Origin: Bacilli bacterium
GTDB lineage: Bacteria; Bacillota_I; Bacilli_A; RFN20; CAG-826
Assembly (NCBI GenBank): GCA_024408235.1
Contig: JAKSVF010000001.1
Coordinates: 29,417 to 93,416, forward strand
Length of the DNA stretch: 64,000 nt
Reading direction: 5' to 3'
Made by a program: the position numbers and the translations under genes. The notes below the pieces were generated by a model. That model was not told where the DNA came from and ran no database searches. It worked only from the letters and a program-made list of their open reading frames with translations. Shown in pieces: positions 49,347 to 63,349 of this stretch. How positions within the stretch are numbered: position 1 is the stretch's first letter; the number at the start of each line of letters is the position of its first letter.

Positions 49347-49925
49347 ATGTACCGCATGTTCTACAATCATGAAGTAACAGGGGATACCTTGTTCATCATA
49401 ATGAATTCATCCAAAATCTTTGACCATGGAGTAACAATCGATGACGTCTATGCGATGTATAGCGGCGATGAGCTCATCGGGGTCAACATCAACAATCTTT
49501 CTAGAATCTTGAAGATCAAGGCTCACGGAATGATCGTTACACCTGGAGAAGAATTGGTAAACGTCGTTAACTCAATCCTCAAAAGAGCAAAGATTGCTCC
49601 GCTTCCATATTGCACATATTCCGGTTATAGAGTAGGGCAGATCGAAGCGATTGAAGGAAACAAAATAGCAGTAGAGATGGCAGGTGAACACCTAAAAGCA
49701 ATCTCTAATTACTCAAACCTTAAAATTGGAGACTATGTCGTCTTGGCATTAGATGGCACAATCCAATATAACGGTGCCACATTCAGAAACTACATTGAAG
49801 ATGGCACAACAATCAATTGCCTTATCTGCAACGCAAAAGAACTCCGTCTAAATATTGAAGGCGAAGGGGCGTTCGTTGTTGAAGGATATAAAACAGGAGA
49901 AGACTTCTATTTGGCAGGAGAGTAA
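49347..49925 (+). CDS. Putative tRNA-binding protein, YtpR-like, with an EMAP/Trbp111-type OB domain
   Basis: The C-terminal half (GQIEAIEG...LKIGDYVVLALDGT) resembles a tRNA-binding OB domain. It is co-operonic with trmB, as ytpR is in Bacillus. The match is weak. Confidence 0.4.
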   Translation: MYRMFYNHEVTGDTLFIIMNSSKIFDHGVTIDDVYAMYSGDELIGVNINNLSRILKIKAHGMIVTPGEELVNVVNSILKRAKIAPLPYCTYSGYRVGQIEAIEGNKIAVEMAGEHLKAISNYSNLKIGDYVVLALDGTIQYNGATFRNYIEDGTTINCLICNAKELRLNIEGEGAFVVEGYKTGEDFYLAGE

Positions 49926-51815: not shown

Positions 51816-52337
51816 ATGAAAAATTTAGTAAATTTCACCGTTGGAAACGAAGGCGATAAGCTCGTTACCGACTACACTTTTGAGAGAACTGATACAAGAC
51901 TCGTTATTACTGAGGCGGAAGTCGCCCCTAAGAGAGGCGATTCAAAGACGACAACCATCACAAAGATCGTCGATTGGGACAAGACCTCAATTGAAGTCAG
52001 CGTTGGAAAGCTTAGAAAAGCGGCTAAGGTTGTCTTAGCAATTCTAGTTATTCTTGTCGGTGCCGCCATCATCGGCGCTTCATTCCTTAAAGACATGGTG
52101 TGTGTCGGAGTTCTCGCCGCTGTAGCAGAAGCATATCCATGGGTTTGTTATTTCGTAGGTGGCTTCGTTGTAATCGCTGGCATCTGCTGGCTGATCACCG
52201 GTATCTTAAGAAGAAAGAAAGCCGCTTTCACAGAGATACTCGTAAAGAGCAATGGCGAGGTTGTTGAATCGTTGAAATTCAATGACACCCCAGAAGGTGA
52301 GATCGCCTCAAACCTCATTGAATTCTTCAGAGGATAA
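51816..52337 (+). CDS. Hypothetical protein with an N-terminal soluble domain and two C-terminal TM helices
   Basis: ORF with an AAAGAGGAAA RBS. No known motif. Confidence 0.45.
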   Translation: MKNLVNFTVGNEGDKLVTDYTFERTDTRLVITEAEVAPKRGDSKTTTITKIVDWDKTSIEVSVGKLRKAAKVVLAILVILVGAAIIGASFLKDMVCVGVLAAVAEAYPWVCYFVGGFVVIAGICWLITGILRRKKAAFTEILVKSNGEVVESLKFNDTPEGEIASNLIEFFRG

Positions 52338-52343
52338 ACAATT

Positions 52344-52368
52344 AAGGGGTTCGCCCCTTTTTCTTTTG
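52344..52368 (+). terminator. Rho-independent terminator
   Basis: aagggg-ttcg-cccctt followed by tttcttttg. Confidence 0.8.
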
Positions 52369-52482: not shown

Positions 52483-53484
52483 ATGGAGAATTTAAAAGAA
52501 CGTGTAACGATTTACCAGGTTGCTCAAGCTGCAGGAGTATCTTTAGCAACAGTATCTCGCGTTATTAACAAGCAGGGCAACGTAACTGAAGCTACGAGAA
52601 CGAAGGTTGAGGAGACAATCAAGCGTTTAGGATATAAGCCTTCAGGCTTAGCTCAGGCTCTTGCTACAAACAGAACAACAAACATCGGTATCGTCATTCC
52701 TAGCGCTAACTATGTTTATATCTCAAGCATGTTGAGCGGTGTCTCTGAGGTCGCTAAGGAAAAAGGGTTTGTTCTTACATTATTTACAACAGGTCATTCA
52801 AGAGAAGATGCAATTGCGATGATTGAAAAGGTCATCGTCTCACACGTAGACGGAGCAATTATCTTTGATGATGAACTTGATGAGGCAGATATCGAGAAGA
52901 TTAACTCCTATTCCGTCCCAACAATCGTTATCAATAAGAAAGTTGTTGGCGAAAGAACAGGATGCGTTAACTTCTCATATACGAACGCGCTCGCGAAGCT
53001 TGTTCAGTCATACTACGAAAACGGTGGCGACACTGAGATGACTTTCATCCATCTTCATAACTGTGGTAGATTGTTGAGCCACTGCGAAAGAAGATTCATT
53101 GCAGCTCACCAGGAAATCGGAAAGCCATATCACATCATGAATGTCGATGACTCTTACACAAGAACGTACCGTGATTTCACCAATTATTTCCAGAATCATA
53201 AAAAAGGCTATTACATCGCTTACCGCGACTCAATTGCAGCAGCCGTTGCAAATGCAGCAACCGATAGTGGACTAAGAATTCCAGAAGACATTCAGGTCGT
53301 TTCACTTGTCGGAACAAAATATGCGCATATCTTGAGACCTACATTAACATCAATCGATTTGGATTGGCAGGAAGTTGGCAAGAGATCGATGTACATGTTA
53401 ATTGATTTGATCAACAGAAACCTTGAAGAAAAGTCTTACAAGTTTGATGCAAATCTCGTCATCAGAAACTCAACAAAACACTAA
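52483..53484 (+). CDS. LacI-family transcriptional regulator
   Basis: The N-terminal HTH VTIYQVAQAAGVSLATVSRVIN is canonical LacI/GalR. It is followed by a periplasmic-binding-protein-like effector domain. Confidence 0.88.
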   Translation: MENLKERVTIYQVAQAAGVSLATVSRVINKQGNVTEATRTKVEETIKRLGYKPSGLAQALATNRTTNIGIVIPSANYVYISSMLSGVSEVAKEKGFVLTLFTTGHSREDAIAMIEKVIVSHVDGAIIFDDELDEADIEKINSYSVPTIVINKKVVGERTGCVNFSYTNALAKLVQSYYENGGDTEMTFIHLHNCGRLLSHCERRFIAAHQEIGKPYHIMNVDDSYTRTYRDFTNYFQNHKKGYYIAYRDSIAAAVANAATDSGLRIPEDIQVVSLVGTKYAHILRPTLTSIDLDWQEVGKRSMYMLIDLINRNLEEKSYKFDANLVIRNSTKH

Positions 53485-53492
53485 CACGAATT

Positions 53493-53520
53493 GACGCGCC
53501 TAACCGACGCGTTTTTCTTT
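53493..53520 (+). terminator. Probable rho-independent terminator after the LacI gene
   Basis: Short stem acgcg/cgcgt with a 9-nt loop, followed by tttttctttt. Confidence 0.5.
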
Positions 53521-53533
53521 TATTTATAAACCT

Positions 53534-53562
53534 TTGATATTTATATCGCGTAAGTCTAGAAT
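53534..53562 (+). promoter_or_regulatory. Sigma-A-type promoter for the transporter/GH31 operon
   Basis: TTGATA, a 17-nt spacer, then TAGAAT. The AGGAGG RBS and the ATG at 53613 lie downstream. Confidence 0.5.
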
Positions 53563-53612
53563 AATAATTAATTAAGCAACTTAACCAATAAATCTAATTA
53601 GGAGGATTTTTT

Positions 53613-55133
53613 ATGGCTGAGCAAACAAAAACAGCGAAGACATCCGGAATCGGGATGAAAGACAAGCTTGGATACGCTTTCGGAGATGTTGGCTCCTTGA
53701 TGGTATTCGGACTTGTTAACACCTTCCTTCAAGTCTTCTACACCGAAACACTCGGTATAACACCAATCTTGGTCATGATTATCATGATCATCGCTCGTGT
53801 ATGGGACGCGATCAACGACCCTCTATGGGGAAGAATCGTCGACAAGGCGCCATGCAAGAGACCTGGAACAAGATATAAGAGATGGCTTGTTTATTTAGCC
53901 CTCCCTCTTGCTTTATCTTCCATCATCATGTTCTTGAATGTGAGAGGCATCTTTGGAGATAACCCTGCACTCACAGTAACATACGCAACCATTTCTTACA
54001 TTCTCTTCGGCATGCTATATACCGGAACAAATATTCCTTATGGCTCAATGGCTTCAGTCATTACAACAGATGATAAGGAAAGAAACGCATTATCAGTCTT
54101 CCGTTCGGTCGGTTCAACTCTCGGCGGATTTGGCCCTATGGCTTTAAGCTTTGTCTCATATGATAAGGTCCAGAAAGTCGTCGAAGGAGTGGCACAGTTC
54201 GATACTGATGGAAATCCAGTCATGGTATCTCAGTTAAATCCAACAAAACTCATCATTGGCGTTGCAATCTTAGCAGTGCTCTGCGTCGTATTCTCAATTC
54301 TCTGCGCAAAGTTCTCAACGGAGCGTGTTGTTACAGAACCATCTAGAGGAGAAACCAAGAAGAAAGGTGAAACCGCTAGAGTTCTCAAGAATCTTCTCAA
54401 GACCCGCTCATTTGTTGTCATCTCAATTGTCGGCATGCTTTTCTTAGCCGCTCAGATGTTCCAGACAACATACAACTCATACGTATTCATGAAATTCTTC
54501 GGCAGTGGTGGTCTTGCTGCTGTTACTCAGGTATGCCAGTACCTTCCAGTAGCAGTCGTCATGTTCCTTGCCGGGAAACTCGTCAAGAAATTTGGCCGTA
54601 AAGAAATCTGCGCTATCGGACTCTTATTTGTCGCTATCTCATTTGGTGTCTTAGCGATCATCCCAACTACAGTCGTTTCAAGAACAATCTTGATGTATCT
54701 CTTCTTCGTGTTCTCACTCTTAGGAGGTATTGGTAACTCCTTTATCTTCTTAATGATATGGGCTCTTGCTAATGACGCGATTGATGATTATTTCATCAAG
54801 TACAGAAGCCATGATGAAGGTACAGCATATTCAATCTTCTCTTTCATGAGAAAACTTGGCCAGACAATCGCAGCTATCATTGTCAACATCTCTCTTATCG
54901 CAATCGGATACGGAGCTGATGGAACAACCAACTTTGCTCCATCTGAAGCTCAGGCTACATCGATGTACTATCAGTCAATCATCATCCCTGCGGTTTTATC
55001 CCTTGCAATGTTCCTCTTACTCATGTTCCTATACCCTCTTGGAAAACAGGCTGTCTTAGACATGCAGGAGAAGAAGAACGCTATTTATGCGGAAGAAGCT
55101 TCAAATGTCGAAAATGAAGCCGTTAGCGAATAA
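53613..55133 (+). CDS. GPH-family (glycoside-pentoside-hexuronide:cation symporter, MelB-like) transporter
   Basis: 12-TM MFS-like protein with the GPH signature RVWDAINDPLWGRIVDK in loop 2-3. Confidence 0.85.
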   Translation: MAEQTKTAKTSGIGMKDKLGYAFGDVGSLMVFGLVNTFLQVFYTETLGITPILVMIIMIIARVWDAINDPLWGRIVDKAPCKRPGTRYKRWLVYLALPLALSSIIMFLNVRGIFGDNPALTVTYATISYILFGMLYTGTNIPYGSMASVITTDDKERNALSVFRSVGSTLGGFGPMALSFVSYDKVQKVVEGVAQFDTDGNPVMVSQLNPTKLIIGVAILAVLCVVFSILCAKFSTERVVTEPSRGETKKKGETARVLKNLLKTRSFVVISIVGMLFLAAQMFQTTYNSYVFMKFFGSGGLAAVTQVCQYLPVAVVMFLAGKLVKKFGRKEICAIGLLFVAISFGVLAIIPTTVVSRTILMYLFFVFSLLGGIGNSFIFLMIWALANDAIDDYFIKYRSHDEGTAYSIFSFMRKLGQTIAAIIVNISLIAIGYGADGTTNFAPSEAQATSMYYQSIIIPAVLSLAMFLLLMFLYPLGKQAVLDMQEKKNAIYAEEASNVENEAVSE

Positions 55134-55135
55134 AA

Positions 55136-57097
55136 ATGAATAAGCAGCAGCTTGACTCACTTTTCATTTCCTCAATCGAAGATGGGGGAATGCGCATTTC
55201 TCTAGCCCAGGGTAAAGCTAAATACAAAATGAGTCGTGGTTCATTCACGACAAAAGACCATATATTTGATAAGCACAACCTCAAGTTCGTTAATAAAGAG
55301 GGGGACAACTTCCTCTTTAGCGACGGCAAGGTTAACTGTGTCATGTCCTTAGAAAAAGGAGAGAACATTAAACTCCGTTTTAAGGCTGACCCAAAATACA
55401 ATCGCTTCATTTTGAAGATCCCTGCATTTGAGAATGAACACATATATGGATGCGGTGAGCAGTATACACACCTTGATCTCAAGGGGAATAAAGTTAAAAT
55501 CTGGGTTTCAGAACACCAACAAGTAATGAAGATCGCCAAGAAGTTCTTAAGAGAGAAACTCTTTGGTGTAAATCCTGATTACAAAGCCCCATACAAGGCT
55601 CACCAAACCTATTATTCTTCACCAGGCTTTATGTCCAGTGAAAACTATTTTGTCTACTGCCATGAAGACGCTTATGGACAAATCGATTTTGAAAAGAACG
55701 AGACTCTAATTAAATTCCGTCAAGTTCCTCAATCGATATCCATACTTACAGGGGATAATCCAATCGATCTTGTTAAGAAAATTACAAAGCTCGTTAATAT
55801 CCAGCCTAAGCTTCCTGACTTTGTGGGTGAAGGCGCAATAATTGCCACCCAAGGCGGAAGCGATGTTATGCTTGAGAAATACGAGGCCTTAAAAGCTAAA
55901 GGCGGAAAAGTATCTGCAATCTGGTGTCAGGACTGGTCTGGACAGATAGTTACAGAATTTGGCTCTCAGGTCTATTGGAACTGGGAAGTTGATAACAATC
56001 TCTATCATGATTTGAAGGAGATCATTGTCCGCTTAAATAATGAGGGAGTTAAATTCCTTGGGTACATCAATACATTCCTAAAAGAAGACACCCCTTTATA
56101 TAAATATGCGGTAGAGCACGATTATATCGTCAAGAAAAAAGACGGTACACCTTACCTCATTCAGTCTACAACATTTAACGCTGGAATAGTTGATCTCACT
56201 TTCCCTGAAGCATATGAATGGTATAAGGGAATCATCAAAACAAACATGATAGGACTTGGCTTATCTGGATGGATGGCTGACTTTGGTGAGTATCTTCCAA
56301 CAGACTCAGTTGTCCATGGGGGCGATCCTGAAAAGCTTCATAACAAATGGCCAACGCTTTGGGCTAAATGCAACTATGACGCCATTAAAGAGTGCGACAT
56401 GGAGGGCAAGATATTTATCTTCTCTCGCGCTGCATATGGTCATACAGTTCAGTATACGAACTCAATGTGGAATGGTGATCAGCACGTTGATTACTCCGAT
56501 GAATATGGGCTTGGTTCAGTCATCCCTGCGACATTATCAATGGCATGCAGCGGAGTTGGCGTGAACCACAGTGATATCGGCGGATACACGACGGTACTTC
56601 ACATGAAGAGAGACGCAGAATTATTTAGAAGATGGTCTGAGATGAATATCTTTACGCCAGTCTTCCGTTGTCACGAAGGAAATAGGCCAAAGGTCAACGT
56701 TCAGTTCGACAGCGAAGAAGTGGTTGATGAATTTATAAAGAACAGCGATATATTTGCCGCCTTAAAACCATATAGAGATGACGTTCTTAAGGAATATTAT
56801 GAGGATGGCATCCCTTGCAATAGACCTCTCTTCTTCCATTTTGATGAAGATGAGTGTTATACGAATCAAAGAGAATTCATGTTTGGAAGCGAACTGGTCG
56901 TCGCTCCTGTCATGCGTAAAAACGTCACCAAGTTGAAAGTCTATTTGCCTAAAGGCGAGTGGATTGGTCTATTTGATGGCAAGACCTACGAAAGTGGTCA
57001 CATTGAAGTCGAGGCTCCTTTAGGAACGATTCCTGCCTTCTATTTAAAGGGAAGTGTTCACGAGAATCTCTTTAGAGATCTTATAAAGGAAAAATAA
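55136..57097 (+). CDS. GH31 glycoside hydrolase of the YihQ (sulfoquinovosidase)-like clade
   Basis: Nucleophile motif SGWMADFGEY (DFGE-type) and acid/base motif MWNGDQH. The region WCQDWSGQ...SQVYWNW resembles the YihQ substrate pocket, but a Gln sits where the sulfonate-binding Arg would be expected. Confidence 0.7.
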   Translation: MNKQQLDSLFISSIEDGGMRISLAQGKAKYKMSRGSFTTKDHIFDKHNLKFVNKEGDNFLFSDGKVNCVMSLEKGENIKLRFKADPKYNRFILKIPAFENEHIYGCGEQYTHLDLKGNKVKIWVSEHQQVMKIAKKFLREKLFGVNPDYKAPYKAHQTYYSSPGFMSSENYFVYCHEDAYGQIDFEKNETLIKFRQVPQSISILTGDNPIDLVKKITKLVNIQPKLPDFVGEGAIIATQGGSDVMLEKYEALKAKGGKVSAIWCQDWSGQIVTEFGSQVYWNWEVDNNLYHDLKEIIVRLNNEGVKFLGYINTFLKEDTPLYKYAVEHDYIVKKKDGTPYLIQSTTFNAGIVDLTFPEAYEWYKGIIKTNMIGLGLSGWMADFGEYLPTDSVVHGGDPEKLHNKWPTLWAKCNYDAIKECDMEGKIFIFSRAAYGHTVQYTNSMWNGDQHVDYSDEYGLGSVIPATLSMACSGVGVNHSDIGGYTTVLHMKRDAELFRRWSEMNIFTPVFRCHEGNRPKVNVQFDSEEVVDEFIKNSDIFAALKPYRDDVLKEYYEDGIPCNRPLFFHFDEDECYTNQREFMFGSELVVAPVMRKNVTKLKVYLPKGEWIGLFDGKTYESGHIEVEAPLGTIPAFYLKGSVHENLFRDLIKEK

Positions 57098-57098
57098 A

Positions 57099-57779
57099 AT
57101 GAAATACTATTTAGATTCAGCAAAGATCGATGAGATCGATTATGCATACAAATATTTGAAGATTGATGGAGTTACCACCAACCCTAAACACATCCAGAAC
57201 AGCGGAAAGCCATTTTTAACCGCGATTAAAGACATTGCGAATTGGCTTGAAGAGAACCATCTCCAAGGCAAGGATGTCTTCCCTGTCTCGGTCGAGATTA
57301 ATCCTCATTTGGACAACCATCTTGAGATGATTGAAGAAGCAAAAAAGATAGCGGCTATATCGGAGAACTTTGTCATAAAGATTCCATGCAACGTTGAAGG
57401 TTGTAAAGCTGCAAAGCTTTTGGAAGACCAAGGCATCAGAACAAACGTAACATTGGTCTTCTCTCCATCTCAAGCTATTCAGGCTGGAAGAATCGGTGCT
57501 ATGTTCGTTTCTCCATTCATCGGATGGAAAGAGTCTTCTGGTGACGATGGACTTAACTACTTACATCAGATTTCAAACATCTATAAGGAGAAGAACTATA
57601 AGACAGAAATCATCTGTGCTGCAGTTCGTTCCGGCAAGCAGATTGCTGAATGTACGGAGATGGGCGCTGATATCATCACAGCAGGACTCTCTGTTTATGA
57701 AGATTCGATCACAGATCCATGGACCGATTTAGGCCTTAAGAGATTCTGTGACGCTTGGGATAACACCGAAGGTAACTAA
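57099..57779 (+). CDS. Short (TalC/FSA-subfamily) transaldolase; candidate 6-deoxy-6-sulfofructose transaldolase
   Basis: GVTTNP motif and Schiff-base Lys in VIKIP. MFVSPFIGW has Phe (transaldolase-type) where FSA aldolases carry the catalytic Tyr. The Arg of the usual SPFVGR is replaced by Trp. Confidence 0.7.
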   Translation: MKYYLDSAKIDEIDYAYKYLKIDGVTTNPKHIQNSGKPFLTAIKDIANWLEENHLQGKDVFPVSVEINPHLDNHLEMIEEAKKIAAISENFVIKIPCNVEGCKAAKLLEDQGIRTNVTLVFSPSQAIQAGRIGAMFVSPFIGWKESSGDDGLNYLHQISNIYKEKNYKTEIICAAVRSGKQIAECTEMGADIITAGLSVYEDSITDPWTDLGLKRFCDAWDNTEGN

Positions 57780-57780
57780 G

Positions 57781-58617
57781 ATGAAAGTTGGTTTTATTGG
57801 ACTTGGCATAATGGGAATGCCAATGGCCACTAATGTTTCTAGAAAATACGATTTAATTGGATATGATGTCATAGCAAAGGAAGCGCCTTTTGCTATTGCT
57901 AGTTCCATAAAGGAAGTTGTAGAGAATTGCGATGTAATCATCTCAATGGTCCCAAAAAATGAACATGTGCAGTCCGTGTATAGCGAGGCGATGCCATTTA
58001 TCAGAAAAGGACAGACTTTCATAGAAATGTCTACGATTTCGCCATCAGTATCTTCCAAGATTGCTCAAGAAGTTGAGAGCAAAGGAGCGGATATGCTCGA
58101 TTGCCCAGTCGTAAAGAGTCAACCAGCCGCAATTAGCGGTACACTTGGCATTTATGTTGGTGGAAAGAAGGATGTCTTTGAATCTGTAAAAGATGTGTTG
58201 TCCTGTATGGGATGCAACATCATATACATGGGCGGACACGGTGCCGGATTAACAATGAAGATTCTTCATAATGCGTTGGTCGGCCAGATTCAAAATGGTG
58301 TCAACGAGGTGATGTCTATCGCTTCAAAATTAGGAATCGATTTGAATGATTTTGTAAAAGCCATTTCCTATGGCGGGGGACAAAACTTCTACATGGATGG
58401 CAAGGCTAAGAACATCATCTCTCAGGACTACCCAACAGCGTTCTCTATCGCGAACATGCATAAGGATGCTCATTTAGCAAAAGACTTACTAAAAGAAAAC
58501 GATCTCTCATATCCGGGAATCGAAAACACCGCTCGAATCTATGACGAAGCGATGGAAATGGGTTTAGGACGTGAAGATTTCTCGGCAACGTACAAGGTTG
58601 TCAACGGAGGTAAATAA
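57781..58617 (+). CDS. NAD(P)-dependent beta-hydroxyacid dehydrogenase (3-hydroxyisobutyrate / tartronate-semialdehyde reductase family; YihU-like candidate sulfolactaldehyde reductase)
   Basis: Rossmann N-terminus MKVGFIGLGIMGMPMA and a catalytic Lys region typical of the HIBADH family. The ATG at 57781 follows the upstream stop directly. Confidence 0.75.
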   Translation: MKVGFIGLGIMGMPMATNVSRKYDLIGYDVIAKEAPFAIASSIKEVVENCDVIISMVPKNEHVQSVYSEAMPFIRKGQTFIEMSTISPSVSSKIAQEVESKGADMLDCPVVKSQPAAISGTLGIYVGGKKDVFESVKDVLSCMGCNIIYMGGHGAGLTMKILHNALVGQIQNGVNEVMSIASKLGIDLNDFVKAISYGGGQNFYMDGKAKNIISQDYPTAFSIANMHKDAHLAKDLLKENDLSYPGIENTARIYDEAMEMGLGREDFSATYKVVNGGK

Positions 58618-58619
58618 AT

Positions 58620-59936
58620 ATGAGAAAAGCTAGAATCGGAGTTTGCTGTTTAACAAGAAAAACATATGACTATCAAACGGCATACGCACTATATCAGGAA
58701 AGAACCGCTGAATTAGTAAAGGACACATCTGTTGACTATTGTGTTTATGGCGAAAACGTTATTGAACCGGAAGATGCTGAAAAGGTTATCCACTATTTTG
58801 AACAGCAGGAAATAGACGCTGTCGTCATCGTCTCGGCCACATTCCATCTTGGACATCTCGCTCTCATGATCAACGACGCCTTGAAGAAACCTATCCTCCT
58901 TTGGGGCTTTGATGAACTCCCATATAACGGTGGAAAGATCAGATTGAATGCAGTGTGCGGCGTTAACTTAAATGCTTCTAACCTTTATAAGGCAGGGGTT
59001 GATAATTACTGTGTCACAATCGGCGATACAATCGATGAGAACTGGGTAAAAGCAATCAAAGCTATGGTCGCTATCCACACAACAAAAATTGGAATTGTCG
59101 GTTATCGCGCACAGGGATTCTTCAATGTCGGAGTTGACGAACTTAACCTCTATAAGAACACAGGTTTGCTCGTCAATCATTATGAGATTAGTGACTTATT
59201 CAAAAAACAGGCTGACGATGAAACCGTTGCTCGTGAAATTGAATGCGTAAAGAGAGAGTGGAATGTAGAAGGCATTAATGATAAGCAAGTTGAATTAGTG
59301 GCTAGACTTGTCGCTTCAACTGAGCTTTTCTTAAAAGAAAAAGGAGTCGATGCTCTTGCAATTCGCTGCTGGCCTGAATTCGCTGCAACCTACGGAATCT
59401 CTCCTTGCGCAATGATGTCTATTCTTCAATCCAGAGGAATTCTTTTGGCATGCGAAGGAGATGTTGAAGCCCTTGTTTCGATGATTGCCGTTAAGGCTTT
59501 AGGCGAACCAACACCATTTATGGCGGATTTATCTCAAGTTAACTTTAAAGATAATTACGCTCTTCTCTGGCATTGTGGCGTTGCGCCATGCAATCTTTGG
59601 GACAAGAAGTGCGTAAGATCTCTTGATACATACTTTGCAGGCGGAAAAGGGGTTACCGCAGGATTCGTCCTCAAAGATGGCGACTTCTCAATTTTCCGTA
59701 TCGACACAGCTAGAGGCAAAACAAGAATATTCTATGAAGAAGGCACAGCTGTTCCGATGGAAAAACTCCTCACAGGTACTTTCGCAAAAGTCCATTTCAA
59801 ACACGATGTCAAAGATGTTCTTGATGTTGTAGTTAATACGGGCGTTGCTCATCACGTCGTTATGGGCTATGTCCAATACGAACCGGTCATTAAGATTCTT
59901 GCTAAGTTGACTGGTTGGGAAATCATCAAGTGCTAA
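58620..59936 (+). CDS. Sugar aldose-ketose isomerase of the L-fucose/L-arabinose isomerase superfamily; candidate sulfoquinovose isomerase
   Basis: 438 aa. Putative metal/catalytic residues sit in ACEGDVEA, LWHCG and AHHVV contexts, with a FucI/AraA-like domain order. This is a family-level call. Confidence 0.55.
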   Translation: MRKARIGVCCLTRKTYDYQTAYALYQERTAELVKDTSVDYCVYGENVIEPEDAEKVIHYFEQQEIDAVVIVSATFHLGHLALMINDALKKPILLWGFDELPYNGGKIRLNAVCGVNLNASNLYKAGVDNYCVTIGDTIDENWVKAIKAMVAIHTTKIGIVGYRAQGFFNVGVDELNLYKNTGLLVNHYEISDLFKKQADDETVAREIECVKREWNVEGINDKQVELVARLVASTELFLKEKGVDALAIRCWPEFAATYGISPCAMMSILQSRGILLACEGDVEALVSMIAVKALGEPTPFMADLSQVNFKDNYALLWHCGVAPCNLWDKKCVRSLDTYFAGGKGVTAGFVLKDGDFSIFRIDTARGKTRIFYEEGTAVPMEKLLTGTFAKVHFKHDVKDVLDVVVNTGVAHHVVMGYVQYEPVIKILAKLTGWEIIKC

Positions 59937-59954
59937 TTTCATAGGAGAGAGAAC

Positions 59955-60671
59955 GTGCCGGTGTGGTTGAGTAAGGCCCTATTTGTTGTAGTCGTCTTTT
60001 TAACAAACATTATCCAAGCGATAACTGGCTTTGCTGGCACTGTTCTTGCCATGCCTTTTTCCATTCAACTTGTTGGTAAGCCATATGCAAAACCGGTGTT
60101 GAATGCCATAGCATTGCTGGTCTGCATTATTGTTGTAGTACGCAACTTTAAGAAGATTGACTGGAAATGCTTATTAGAGATTATCGTTTTCATGGGTATC
60201 GGTATGGTTGCCGGTTTCTTCCTTGAAAAGTATCTCTACTCGAAATGGTTCCTAAAAATATATGGAATCATTATCGTGTTCATCGCTATTTATTACTTCT
60301 TTGTGGATAATCCAATTAAACTTCCTAAACCCATTGGATGGGTGATCATGTTCCTTGCGGGAATTATCCACATGATATTTGTCTCAGGCGGCCCGCTTCT
60401 AATCATTGCTGCCAAGAATAAAATCAAGGATAAAGAAACCTTCAGAGCGACTTTGTCAATGGTATGGGTGATACTCAACTCATCAATACTCGTCACTGAT
60501 GCGGTAGGCGGGAACTTCTCATTGGATCAACTTTGGATTCTCCTCATTATGATTCCAACAGTCGTTATTTCGATTCTTATCGGGAAGTTTGCCCTTAAGA
60601 AAATGTCTAACAACCTTTTCATGAAATTAACTTGTGTTCTCTTATTTATTTCTGGATTCCTAGTCATATGA
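59955..60671 (+). CDS. TauE/SafE (TSUP)-family anion exporter
   Basis: 7-8 TM helices, about 240 aa, and a Gly-rich VSGGPLLIIA motif typical of DUF81/TauE. Confidence 0.7.
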   Translation: MPVWLSKALFVVVVFLTNIIQAITGFAGTVLAMPFSIQLVGKPYAKPVLNAIALLVCIIVVVRNFKKIDWKCLLEIIVFMGIGMVAGFFLEKYLYSKWFLKIYGIIIVFIAIYYFFVDNPIKLPKPIGWVIMFLAGIIHMIFVSGGPLLIIAAKNKIKDKETFRATLSMVWVILNSSILVTDAVGGNFSLDQLWILLIMIPTVVISILIGKFALKKMSNNLFMKLTCVLLFISGFLVI

Positions 60672-60676
60672 TCATA

Positions 60677-61654
60677 ATGAATAACCTCCAAAAATCTATA
60701 ATCAGAATCCTTCAGCAAAAGAAGGAATGCTCAAGAAAAGAGCTCTCTTCTTTGCTGTCGGTTACGCCAGCTGCAATCACCCTTGCAACAGGACCTCTTT
60801 TAGATGGCGGATTCATCGAACAATTGCATGAAGTATCTAGAGAAAAAGCAGGCCGAAAAGAGGTTATGTTATCGGTCAATGCAGATTCATTTTTCGCCAT
60901 TGGAATCGACGTAAATGATGATGGCATTTCACTTGTTAAACTTAATGGTCGTCTTGAAGTTACTCAATTAATTGAGTTATCTACTATTAAAGAACTAATC
61001 GTTGCTTTAGATAGGTTCGATTTATCTCTATGCATCGGCATCTCTATTTCACTTAAATCGTTCTATAGCGTTGAGCATATAAATAACGATGTTCAGACTC
61101 TCCTTAACCATTTAAAAACCATCAACGAAAATGTTACGCTGATCAACAATATTGCTGCCCTTGCTTACGCTTACAAAATGCGTAATCCTCAGGATGAGAG
61201 TTTCGTCGTTATTAAATATGGACCAGGCGTTGGCTCTGCATGTTTTATCAAGAACCATTTGCTCCAGTCTCCTTCAAACCCAACATATGAACTCGGAAAG
61301 GTTTTCCTTAATGATCGCCTGGTTACTATTGAAGAGGCTATCGGATATAAGTCGATCAGCGATTCTAAGCCTGAGGCTCTTGCTCTTTTGAGAACGGATG
61401 AAAACGTTAGAGCGCGAGTGCTGAAAGTTCTCGGCTTTACCATCCATAACGTGAACACTCTTTTGCAATTGGATAAGGTCCTTGTTTCTGGAGACATCTT
61501 CAAAGACGATAGAATCTTCAATGAGCTGTTGGAGAAAATACCAATGACTGATGAGGAGAAGGCAAAAGTAACAAGAATGAGTGACTATGCTGAATTGAAT
61601 AAAGCCAAATCCGCACTGACCGCTCAGTACTTATTCTTTAACGGTGATAAGTAA
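60677..61654 (+). CDS. ROK-like transcriptional regulator (N-terminal winged HTH plus ASKHA sugar-kinase fold; no Cys/His zinc motif evident)
   Basis: wHTH RILQQKKECSRKELSSLLSVTPAAITLATGPL, followed by the AIGIDVND start of an actin-like fold. Confidence 0.5.
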   Translation: MNNLQKSIIRILQQKKECSRKELSSLLSVTPAAITLATGPLLDGGFIEQLHEVSREKAGRKEVMLSVNADSFFAIGIDVNDDGISLVKLNGRLEVTQLIELSTIKELIVALDRFDLSLCIGISISLKSFYSVEHINNDVQTLLNHLKTINENVTLINNIAALAYAYKMRNPQDESFVVIKYGPGVGSACFIKNHLLQSPSNPTYELGKVFLNDRLVTIEEAIGYKSISDSKPEALALLRTDENVRARVLKVLGFTIHNVNTLLQLDKVLVSGDIFKDDRIFNELLEKIPMTDEEKAKVTRMSDYAELNKAKSALTAQYLFFNGDK

Positions 61655-61684: not shown

Positions 61685-63349
61685 ATGGAACACACTAATT
61701 GGTACAAGGATGCTGTTATCTACCAGATTTATCCACGTTCATTTTGCGACAGGAATGGAGATGGAGTAGGTGATATACCTGGCATTATTTCAAAACTAGA
61801 TTACTTAAAGGACCTCGGAGTGAACTGCGTATGGCTTTCTCCTGTTTACGATTCGCCACAAGAGGACAACGGTTACGATATCGCTAATTACCGTGATATC
61901 TATAAGCCTTTCGGAACTCTTAAGGACTTTACTATGATGCTCGATGAAATGCATAAAAGGGGCATCCGTTTAGTCATGGATTTGGTCGTTAATCACACAT
62001 CCAGCGAACATGAGTGGTTCAAGAGCGCTATTTCGGACAAGAATTCGCCATACCGTGACTATTACATAATCAGAAAAGGTAAAGGCAAAAATGGAAAGAA
62101 GCCACCTAATAACTGGTCCGGATTCTTTGCTGAATCAACTTGGGAAAGGATTGGCGAGAGTGATGAATGGTATTTACATCTCTTCGCAAAAGGCCAGCCT
62201 GACCTCAACTGGGAAAACCCAAAGGTAAGAGAGGAAGTCAAAGATATCTTGAGATATTGGTTAGATATGGGTGTTGATGGCTTTAGATGCGATGTCATAA
62301 CCCTCATTTCCAAGAAACAGGATTTCAAGTCTAGATTCCCGACCCTCGCTTTATGCGGTAAAGACGCTTTTGTAATGGGTCCAAGACTTCATGAATACCT
62401 ACATGACTTATATAAAGACGTCTATGCGAACTATGATTGCATGACAGTCGGAGAAACGGTTCTTTCAAGTCTCGACGATGCCATTAGTCTTGTATCGCCG
62501 GAAAGAGAAGAACTTGATATGGTGTTCAACTTTGACCATACGGATGTCGATAACCATATGGGCGTTAAGTGGCTTTATAGAAAATTCAAACTCACGAACC
62601 TCAAAAAGGCGGTCCGCAAATGGCAAATCGGTTTAAAAGGCAAGGGCTGGAACTCTCTATTCATCGAAAATCATGACCAAAGAAGGTCAGTAGGGCGTTT
62701 CGGAACTGACGACAAGGAATTCCGCGTCATCTCAAGCAAAATGCTCTCAGCGACCTATTTCTTGCTTCAGGGAACGCCATTCATTTACCAGGGTCAAGAA
62801 CTTGGAATGACAAATGGAGATTTCGAATCAATCGATGATGTTGTAGATGTGGAGGCCCATAACGTTTACAAGCTAGGGCAGTCACTCCCAATACTTAAAC
62901 CGTTCCTTAAAAAGACATTAATGTCTTGCAACAGAGATAATGCAAGAACGCCTGTTCAGTGGGATGACTCACGCTATGCAGGATTCTCAGAAGCCAAGCC
63001 TTGGCTAAAGGTGAATAAGAATAAGAGTTTCATCAATGCAGAGGCAGCGATAAAAGATCCTGACTCAACTTACAATTTCTTCAAGAAGATAATTGAATTC
63101 AGAAAAGGAAATGATGTTATTAAAAACGGTGATTACATCGACCTGCTCCCTAGAAACAATTCCGTCTATGCCTATGTTAGAAAACTGGCTGATAAAGAAG
63201 TGGTTGTTATATCTAATTTCACGAATAAGAGACTCTCTTGCAAAATCCTTAAGGATTATAAGAAATACAATATTGTTTTGACAAATTATGTCGAAAAAGA
63301 AGATGATTATCTCAAACCATATGAGACAAGAGTCTTAATTAATTATTAA
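61685..63349 (+). CDS. GH13 alpha-glucosidase (oligo-1,6-glucosidase / GH13_31-like)
   Basis: N-terminus WYKDAVIYQIYPRSFCDRNGDGVGD, plus DLVVNHTS, GFRCDV (nucleophile Asp), GETV/E acid-base and NHD motifs. Confidence 0.9.
   Translation: MEHTNWYKDAVIYQIYPRSFCDRNGDGVGDIPGIISKLDYLKDLGVNCVWLSPVYDSPQEDNGYDIANYRDIYKPFGTLKDFTMMLDEMHKRGIRLVMDLVVNHTSSEHEWFKSAISDKNSPYRDYYIIRKGKGKNGKKPPNNWSGFFAESTWERIGESDEWYLHLFAKGQPDLNWENPKVREEVKDILRYWLDMGVDGFRCDVITLISKKQDFKSRFPTLALCGKDAFVMGPRLHEYLHDLYKDVYANYDCMTVGETVLSSLDDAISLVSPEREELDMVFNFDHTDVDNHMGVKWLYRKFKLTNLKKAVRKWQIGLKGKGWNSLFIENHDQRRSVGRFGTDDKEFRVISSKMLSATYFLLQGTPFIYQGQELGMTNGDFESIDDVVDVEAHNVYKLGQSLPILKPFLKKTLMSCNRDNARTPVQWDDSRYAGFSEAKPWLKVNKNKSFINAEAAIKDPDSTYNFFKKIIEFRKGNDVIKNGDYIDLLPRNNSVYAYVRKLADKEVVVISNFTNKRLSCKILKDYKKYNIVLTNYVEKEDDYLKPYETRVLINY

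Follow-up and report, generated by a model that had tools for sequence, protein, structure and literature searches.

A probable sulfoglycolytic transaldolase operon with a Gln-type GH31 glycosidase in an uncultured Bacilli bacterium

Introduction

An arginine is treated as a hallmark of the GH31 sulfoquinovosidases, yet it is missing from the GH31 enzymes encoded beside 6-deoxy-6-sulfofructose (SF) transaldolases in the stretch of DNA described here and in many related genomes. Two options present themselves. Either the recognition rule is incomplete and motif-based surveys are missing many degraders of sulfoquinovose (SQ), or these clusters start from something other than the usual SQ glycosides. 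The locus in question lies in a 64,000-nucleotide stretch (the window) from a metagenome-assembled, uncultured Bacilli bacterium of a gut/rumen-type lineage. Its nearest genome records are Bacillales UBA1744 and Erysipelotrichaceae-like metagenome-assembled genomes from rumen or gut, and its seven operon proteins are the database records MCQ2796904-10 on a 114-kb contig. Is this the known pathway, and if so, what does its glycosidase recognize? We read the locus, with a probability of about 0.8, as a reductive, 2,3-dihydroxypropanesulfonate (DHPS)-forming operon of the known sulfoglycolytic transaldolase pathway (sulfo-TAL, or sulfo-SFT) that carries a Gln-type GH31.

Gene content and proposed pathway

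A preliminary description of this DNA had claimed a tight block of seven co-directional open reading frames (ORFs) with the content and order of a sulfo-TAL operon. All seven ORFs are present where it placed them, and the families it named were recovered with Pfam and NCBIfam profiles: LacI, MFS_2/GPH, GH31, TAL_FSA, NAD_binding_2 with NAD_binding_11, a weak Fucose_iso_C and TauE. Gene content, order and spacing could be observed directly. The gaps are 1-2 nt at the symporter/GH31, GH31/transaldolase, transaldolase/reductase and reductase/isomerase junctions, and 18 nt separate the isomerase gene from that of TauE. The content and order of the seven-gene operon stand, but the operon runs one gene further, into a ROK-like regulator gene described below. 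The genes assigned to the pathway are as follows.

53613-55133, + strand: GPH/MFS_2 glycoside:cation symporter that presumably imports SQ or SQ-glycerol (SftA role); TIGR00792 235 against a cut-off of 231, PF13347 E = 6e-68
55136-57097, + strand: YihQ-like GH31 of the Gln type (Q-type), MCQ2796906.1; NF007746 698 against a cut-off of 553
57099-57779, + strand: SF transaldolase; 284 bits and 61% identity to BmSF-TAL (8BC3)
57781-58617, + strand: NAD(P)-dependent beta-hydroxyacid dehydrogenase (beta-HAD), presumed sulfolactaldehyde reductase (SftR family); PF03446 and PF14833
58620-59936, + strand: SftI/SqvD-like aldose-ketose isomerase in the fucose-isomerase superfamily that presumably acts on SQ; NF048012 E = 6e-59
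59955-60671, + strand: TauE/SafE-family anion exporter, presumed DHPS exporter (SftE role); PF01925 83 bits against a cut-off of 32.6

Ribosome-binding sites precede the starts of the symporter gene (AGGAGG at 53600-53605), the reductase gene and the TauE gene, which begins with GTG behind GGAGAG. The likelier reductase start is the ATG at 57781, 1 nt past the transaldolase stop, for a protein of 278 aa that agrees with the NCBI annotation; a GTG at 57748 is the other candidate. The best solved relatives of the GH31 and the transaldolase are sulfoquinovosidases and BmSF-TAL, and the sole NCBIfam match of the isomerase is SftI, below its cut-off; best hits in neutral-sugar clades, which the preliminary description had named as a refutation, did not appear, and the sulfo-TAL reading is supported. 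The published sulfo-SFT Pfam signature consists of PF00923, PF02952, PF03446 and PF14833 (PMC11968277), and the cluster in the window matches this set, with the PF02952-superfamily score below its cut-off.

The sulfo-TAL pathway and its reductive variant are established in Eubacterium rectale, Clostridium symbiosum and Bacillus (PMC7491151, PMC8397734). For the window we infer all substrates and products, as well as the regulation, from sequence. The GPH symporter would import SQ or sulfoquinovosyl glycerol, and the GH31 enzyme would free SQ from the glycoside. The SftI-like isomerase would convert SQ to SF, from which the transaldolase would move the C1-C3 unit to glyceraldehyde-3-phosphate, yielding fructose-6-phosphate for glycolysis and 3-sulfolactaldehyde. 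The reductase would turn 3-sulfolactaldehyde into DHPS with regeneration of NAD(P)+, and the TauE protein would export the DHPS.

The transaldolase

Judged by its sequence, the transaldolase qualifies as the signature enzyme of sulfo-TAL, and it provides the strongest evidence for that reading. Its best solved relative is the SF transaldolase of Bacillus megaterium (BmSF-TAL), which it matches with 284 bits, as compared with 158 bits for Thermotoga TalC and about 72 bits for FSA. The Schiff-base triad D6/K89/E61 of BmSF-TAL is kept as D6/K94/E66, and N111/S133, which orient the sugar, as N116/S138. The two sulfonate-orienting residues, Trp138 and Arg172 in BmSF-TAL, correspond to W143 and R177 (A-x-R177). 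The roles of these residues have been described, and a W138R change marks the ordinary F6P-type enzyme; TalC and FSA, which act on phosphate sugars, have Arg at this position (PMC11659671). Both the clade of the enzyme and its sulfonate-orienting residues are plain in the alignment. The Phe that had been noted at the position of the FSA Tyr is F140 in SPFIGW, and the motif SPF.GW occurs in 83 of 83 transaldolases of related loci.

The protein is 100% identical between the window and one relative, L005 (Bacillales UBA1744), with the GH31, reductase and TauE proteins at 85-88% and the isomerase at 96%. Such a mosaic could reflect either recombination or very uneven constraint.

Conservation of the cluster

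A scan with the transaldolase alignment, taking one genome per species, gave 80 loci. The order GH31-transaldolase-reductase-isomerase-(DUF4867)-TauE was seen in the large majority of them (most of L002-L054; about 60 genomes), and again on two metagenomic contigs with precomputed Pfam calls. The order is kept across many genomes at 55-96% protein identity. The GH31 comes in two types, with Arg (R-type) or Gln (Q-type) at the hallmark position, and the isomerase in two clades. These occur in free combination with one set of transaldolase, reductase and TauE families, which argues that the GH31 types, and likewise the isomerase clades, are isofunctional.

Several variations on the cluster were seen in the sampled loci. 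A human-gut contig of the Roseburia lenta type (L085, 9001-16706) encodes a Gln-type GH31 that keeps R294, in the order GH31-transaldolase-reductase-DUF4867-TauE-isomerase-ROK; this GH31 protein is found in 292 index blocks of the assembly collection and is thus common in metagenomes. Further variations were noted in L010, L015, L017, L018, L026, L040, L046 and L048 (at about 14-20 kb), L002 (8796-10004 and 16151-17068) and L023. In many related clusters the sulfo-TAL genes adjoin an oppositely oriented module that encodes a carboxylesterase, a GPH transporter and another GH31, which is only distantly related (22-25% identity to YihQ). Other clusters have a COesterase and a Hydrolase_4 lipase within the operon. 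Neither arrangement occurs in the window. The esterase and lipase genes of these related clusters may serve to deacylate sulfolipids. Dozens of 'cleanbin' records (within L013-L052) carry a near-identical Bacilli-type cluster, with transaldolases 69-75% identical, under the labels Bacteroides uniformis, Alistipes, Parasutterella, Slackia, Prevotella and others. These taxonomic labels seem untrustworthy, for if they were correct the cluster would have to be highly mobile.

Several observations weigh against a sulfo-TAL assignment. The GH31 lacks not only Arg301 of the Q/E-RWY motif (E. coli numbering) but also R294 and K300, and it has Glu at the S297 position. The YihU sulfonate ligands Asn174 and Ser178 have no counterpart in the reductase, where they align with His and Val, and the Arg123 position is Lys. 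Both the reductase and the isomerase score under every curated NCBIfam equivalog cut-off, TauE is a broad family of anion exporters, and DUF4867 (SftX) was absent when the whole window was searched by tblastn. How much does each of these points weigh?

The GH31 glycosidase

The GH31 enzyme had been called YihQ-like. It does pass the NCBIfam YihQ model, but the sulfonate-binding arginine is missing. Its best solved relatives in the PDB are four sulfoquinovosidases at 445-515 bits, as compared with about 130 bits for alpha-glucosidases and xylosidases. Both catalytic aspartates are kept: the nucleophile D382 (WMADFGE) is equivalent to E. coli D405 and the acid/base D448 (NGDQH) to D472. The sulfonate-recognition motif of GH31 is Q/E-RWY (PMC8006165, PMC12780224), represented in E. 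coli by Q288, R301, W304 and Y508. The window enzyme retains Q265, W281 and Y484 and carries Q278 at the R301 position, in an alignment that is ungapped from QDW to WNW (FGKRVMW in E. coli, FGSQVYW in the window).

Gln occupies this position in all of the 120 nearest database homologues (49-88% identity). In the loci retrieved, a sample skewed to relatives of the window, 68 GH31 genes next to SF transaldolase genes were typed, 61 as Gln-type and 7 as Arg-type. Gln is also common in remoter GH31 relatives of unassigned specificity (75/150 representatives). Neighbour-joining placed all characterised sulfoquinovosidases in the Arg clade and two Gln lineages on separate branches of the same 650-700-residue group. 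The second of these lineages includes cultured Butyrivibrio strains as well as the Roseburia lenta-type protein widespread in metagenomes. When 180 Gln-type sequences were compared with 18 of the Arg type, a co-varying set common to both Gln lineages emerged, consisting of R301Q, G368T/E369T, N/S474H and Y337F. The Bacilli lineage has in addition lost R294 and K300, gained a conserved Lys (K316 in the window) where E. coli has A339 and acquired a basic, remodelled loop at window residues 131-154. R294 is retained in the Lachnospiraceae/Oscillospiraceae lineage.

Then, how might a Gln-type enzyme accommodate a sulfonate? It could still bind the group through relocated polar or basic residues, H450 and K316, in place of the arginine. 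His450 stands two residues past the acid/base D448, and Lys316, going by GH31 barrel topology, presumably sits on the neighbouring barrel loop; we propose the two as candidate sulfonate ligands. That the arginine is dispensable elsewhere is illustrated by AmSqgH, a GH31 sulfoquinovosidase of Alteromonas without the motif (PMC12780224), and the YihU pocket is a case of arginine-free sulfonate recognition (PMC8006165). Arg- and Gln-type enzymes take up one and the same place in operons that are otherwise alike. On the simplest interpretation, the Gln-type enzymes are sulfoquinovosidases of equal function in which the residues that bind the sulfonate have moved elsewhere. Put in full, the GH31 would be a glycosidase variant not yet characterised, belonging to a large YihQ-like lineage in rumen/gut Bacilli and Erysipelotrichaceae, beside which Butyrivibrio, Roseburia and Oscillospiraceae have a second one; both would be genuine sulfoquinovosidases that recognize the sulfonate without the canonical arginine, by a co-evolved set of Gln278, His450, Thr346 and Phe314 together with Lys316 (Bacilli) or the retained Arg294 (the other clade). 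We give this full proposal even odds.

The alternative that survives best accepts a genuine sulfo-TAL pathway, but one that takes up free SQ, with the Q-type GH31 acting on some other glycoside (an acylated or modified SQ glycoside, or a related sulfosugar) or having a far weaker preference for the sulfonate. The placement of the Q-type gene speaks against it: in 61 loci it lies directly upstream of the SF transaldolase gene, where the R-type stands in equivalent clusters. The replacement of Arg301 without exception in the 120 nearest homologues, and in half of the more distant representatives, would suit a changed substrate, and its covariation with E369T, N/S474H and Y337F points to a remodelled pocket; set against this, Q265, W281, Y484 and both catalytic Asp residues are retained, and AmSqgH offers a precedent for sulfonate recognition by other means (PMC12780224). 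The carboxylesterases or lipases that adjoin the GH31 gene in some related operons also count in its favour. On balance we regard this alternative as unlikely.

The reductase, isomerase and transporters

The reductase had been described as YihU-like, which holds at the level of the beta-HAD family and fails as orthology to YihU: it is 29% identical to E. coli YihU, scores 137 bits on the YihU model NF012005 (cut-off 348) and differs in the pocket residues. The sulfonate pocket of YihU is formed by Asn174, Ser178 and the Arg123 backbone (PMC8006165). Reductases from clusters that carry a canonical R-type GH31 share 49-54% identity with that of the window, and the motif MKI.HN.LV.QIQNGVNE is present in 72 of 72 reductases examined, those of R-type clusters included. 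On these sequence grounds the window enzyme is assigned to the sulfo-TAL reductase family of Firmicutes and not to the YihU equivalog. We considered the mismatch with YihU as an argument against a sulfonate substrate and rejected it, because the reductases of canonical Arg-type clusters carry the same motif.

The isomerase has a sole NCBIfam match, to SftI (NF048012), which is full length with E = 6e-59 but reaches only 200 bits against a cut-off of 700; its score for the Pfam PF02952 superfamily is 21.8, under the cut-off of 29.3. A sequence search of the PDB found no solved relative. Orthologues at 55-96% identity occur in SF-transaldolase clusters. Two isomerase clades are found in such clusters, 23-27% identical to each other, and each occurs with either GH31 type; the clade of the window's enzyme neighbours SF transaldolases in more than 50 loci, one of them in Caloramator proteoclasticus, where the GH31 is R-type. 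The symporter is 25% identical to E. coli YihO. For both transporters the substrates, and with them the importer and exporter roles, are predicted from family membership.

DUF4867 (SftX) is tied to sulfoglycolysis clusters and commonly conserved in them, without being known to be essential (PMC11968277). Most other relatives of the window cluster have it; the closest ones, L005 and L006, lack it, as does L041. Since the window and these relatives all lack it, DUF4867 appears dispensable in this lineage.

Could the whole cluster instead degrade a non-sulfonated 6-modified or 6-deoxy hexoside, for example of the quinovose type, by way of the isomerase, transaldolase and an aldehyde reductase, and could TauE export a different anion? 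In favour of this, neither the GH31 nor the reductase has the charged or polar residues by which YihQ and YihU bind the sulfonate, and the isomerase falls short of the SftI cut-off. The transaldolase, however, has Trp143 where phosphate-sugar TalC and FSA have Arg, keeps R177 and is 61% identical to an enzyme that binds sulfofructose; the reductase motif is the same in canonical R-type sulfoquinovosidase clusters; and, as in proven SQ clusters, DUF4867 is found together with TauE. We consider this reading very improbable. The view that the genes lie together merely by coincidence, or are in decay and not a functional unit, could draw on the loss of DUF4867 relative to most relatives but is effectively refuted by intact ORFs with 1-18 nt spacing and ribosome-binding sites, a gene order conserved at 55-96% identity in many genomes and a GC content like that of the flanks.

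Regulators, transcription signals and flanking genes

The remaining features of the locus are the two regulator genes and the putative transcription signals.

52344-52360, + strand: strong intrinsic terminator that closes the upstream housekeeping gene and marks the 5' limit of the locus; AAGGGGTTCGCCCCTT, then a T-run
52483-53484, + strand: LacI-family regulator; PF00356 and Peripla_BP domains
53494-53521, + strand: hairpin with T-run 3' of lacI, probable terminator; ACGCG...CGCGT, then TTTTTCTTTT
53534-53562, + strand: promoter-like site TTGATA-17-TAGAAT; best match in the region, 10/12
53572-53584, + strand: candidate operator, palindrome TTAAGcaaCTTAA inside 53556-53591
60677-61654, + strand: divergent member of the ROK regulator family (Mlc/NagC-like) with a winged helix at the N-terminus; weak ROK, MarR, HTH_24 and Mlc matches

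The block had been thought to end at 60671, but the ATG of the ROK-like gene follows at 60677, 5 nt past the TauE stop. Because its homologues lie 3-26 nt past TauE in 34 of 58 loci, the ROK-like gene belongs to the cluster as a conserved eighth gene that the preliminary description left out; the Roseburia-type cluster is likewise followed by a ROK gene. The claim that the block is bracketed by terminators applies to the 5' side, where the terminator is strong, and not to the 3' side, as the terminator scan found none on the + strand after TauE. Among the 80 loci an orthologue of lacI occurs only in L006 (92%), so that this regulator is confined to the immediate relatives of the window. The lacI gene is probably a separate transcription unit, since it has its own hairpin and T-run whose stem is kept in L006 by compensatory changes, with other bases (CGCATG/CATGCG).

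The promoter proposed at 53534-53562 is indeed the best promoter-like site of the region, but such sites are not enriched (19, as compared with 22.3 expected from shuffled sequence). Relative to L006 its -10 element is conserved and its -35 element partly so; the spacer between them has diverged, and a 36-nt stretch from the -10 hexamer on (53556-53591) is identical. We looked for an even-spaced palindromic operator of the LacI type, and only the odd-centred 13-nt palindrome in the conserved stretch turned up. In the arrangement that these features suggest, a promoter between lacI and the symporter gene would drive seven translationally coupled genes, the last of them that of the ROK-like regulator, and in the absence of substrate the operon would be repressed by LacI, the ROK-like protein or both.

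The genes upstream of the locus are housekeeping genes. Neither of two upstream ORFs, 49347-49925 (192 aa) and 51816-52337 (173 aa), matches Pfam; the second contains hydrophobic stretches. Scanned in full, the window gave no Rfam or tRNA matches. Downstream, 30 nt past the ROK-like gene, lies a GH13 gene (61685-63349) resembling trehalose-6-phosphate hydrolase or oligo-1,6-glucosidase. Of the relatives, just the closest two, L005 and L006, have it here (86% identity), and for that reason it probably lies outside the sulfo-TAL system. We considered whether the operon is a horizontal-transfer island and set this aside, its GC content being uniform with that of the flanks.

Significance

Fermentation of SQ, a plant sulfo-sugar, to DHPS feeds bacteria that respire sulfite and produce H2S, and the locus would add an uncultured herbivore- or gut-associated Bacilli lineage to the likely primary degraders of SQ. 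In the literature that we searched, no paper linked Erysipelotrichaceae-like bacteria to SQ. The operon is a known pathway in a lineage that this literature does not link to the sugar, and the Gln-type glycosidase is the part worth following up. A major survey screened GH31 proteins by a motif built from published signature residues (PMC8397734), and clusters of the Gln type may have been filtered out of it; the rumen yihQ paper makes no statement on signature residues. If the Gln-type enzymes are indeed sulfoquinovosidases, and if the survey motif required the arginine, SQ degraders in the rumen and the human gut have been systematically under-counted.

Comparison with known systems

The reductive sft cluster of E. 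rectale and C. symbiosum (PMC7491151, PMC8397734, PMC11968277) has the enzyme set predicted for the window, namely a GH31, an SF transaldolase, a PF02952-type isomerase, a DHPS-forming beta-HAD reductase, TauE and a sugar symporter, in the anaerobic gut Firmicutes setting that the window shares. In R-type Lachnospiraceae clusters (L069, L084) the reductase has 49-51% identity to that of the window and shows its motif. The differences lie in the GH31, where E. rectale SftG (6PNR) has the canonical Arg (FGKRLQW) and the window enzyme Gln (FGSQVYW); in SftX/DUF4867, missing from the window; in the isomerase, those sampled from R-type Lachnospiraceae scoring 420 bits on the SftI model as compared with 200 for the window's, at 23-27% identity and in a different clade; and in gene order and regulators, which in the window are LacI and the ROK-like protein.

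The oxidative sulfo-TAL clusters of Bacillus, sftATXGIFDE of B. aryabhattai and sqv of B. megaterium, provide the closest match for the transaldolase, which is 61% identical to BmSF-TAL with the same catalytic and sulfonate-orienting residues. The roles of importer, GH31, isomerase and TauE exporter are common to both. Whereas the Bacillus clusters oxidize sulfolactaldehyde to sulfolactate with the aldehyde dehydrogenase SftD, the window has a reductase, and unlike the window they have a GntR regulator and DUF4867.

The sulfo-EMP cluster of E. coli, yihOPQRSTUV, has counterparts of three window proteins: YihQ, a GH31 of the same family (38% identity by tblastn, with the window enzyme passing the NCBIfam model of YihQ), the GPH transporter YihO (25% identity) and a beta-HAD reductase that forms DHPS, as predicted for that of the window. 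It cleaves its sugar with a kinase and an aldolase (YihV, YihT) and has a YihS-type isomerase, whereas the window has a transaldolase. At the residue level, Asn174 and Ser178 of YihU are His and Val in the window, and Arg301 of YihQ is Gln.

Finally, AmSqgH of Alteromonas (PMC12780224), from a separate clade, resembles the window enzyme in being a GH31 without the full Q/E-RWY motif, and it has been shown to hydrolyse SQ glycosides. It lies outside subfamily GH31_13 with R302, T377, K412 and F513 as its predicted residues, whereas the window enzyme is YihQ-like over its full length and keeps the Q, W and Y of the motif.

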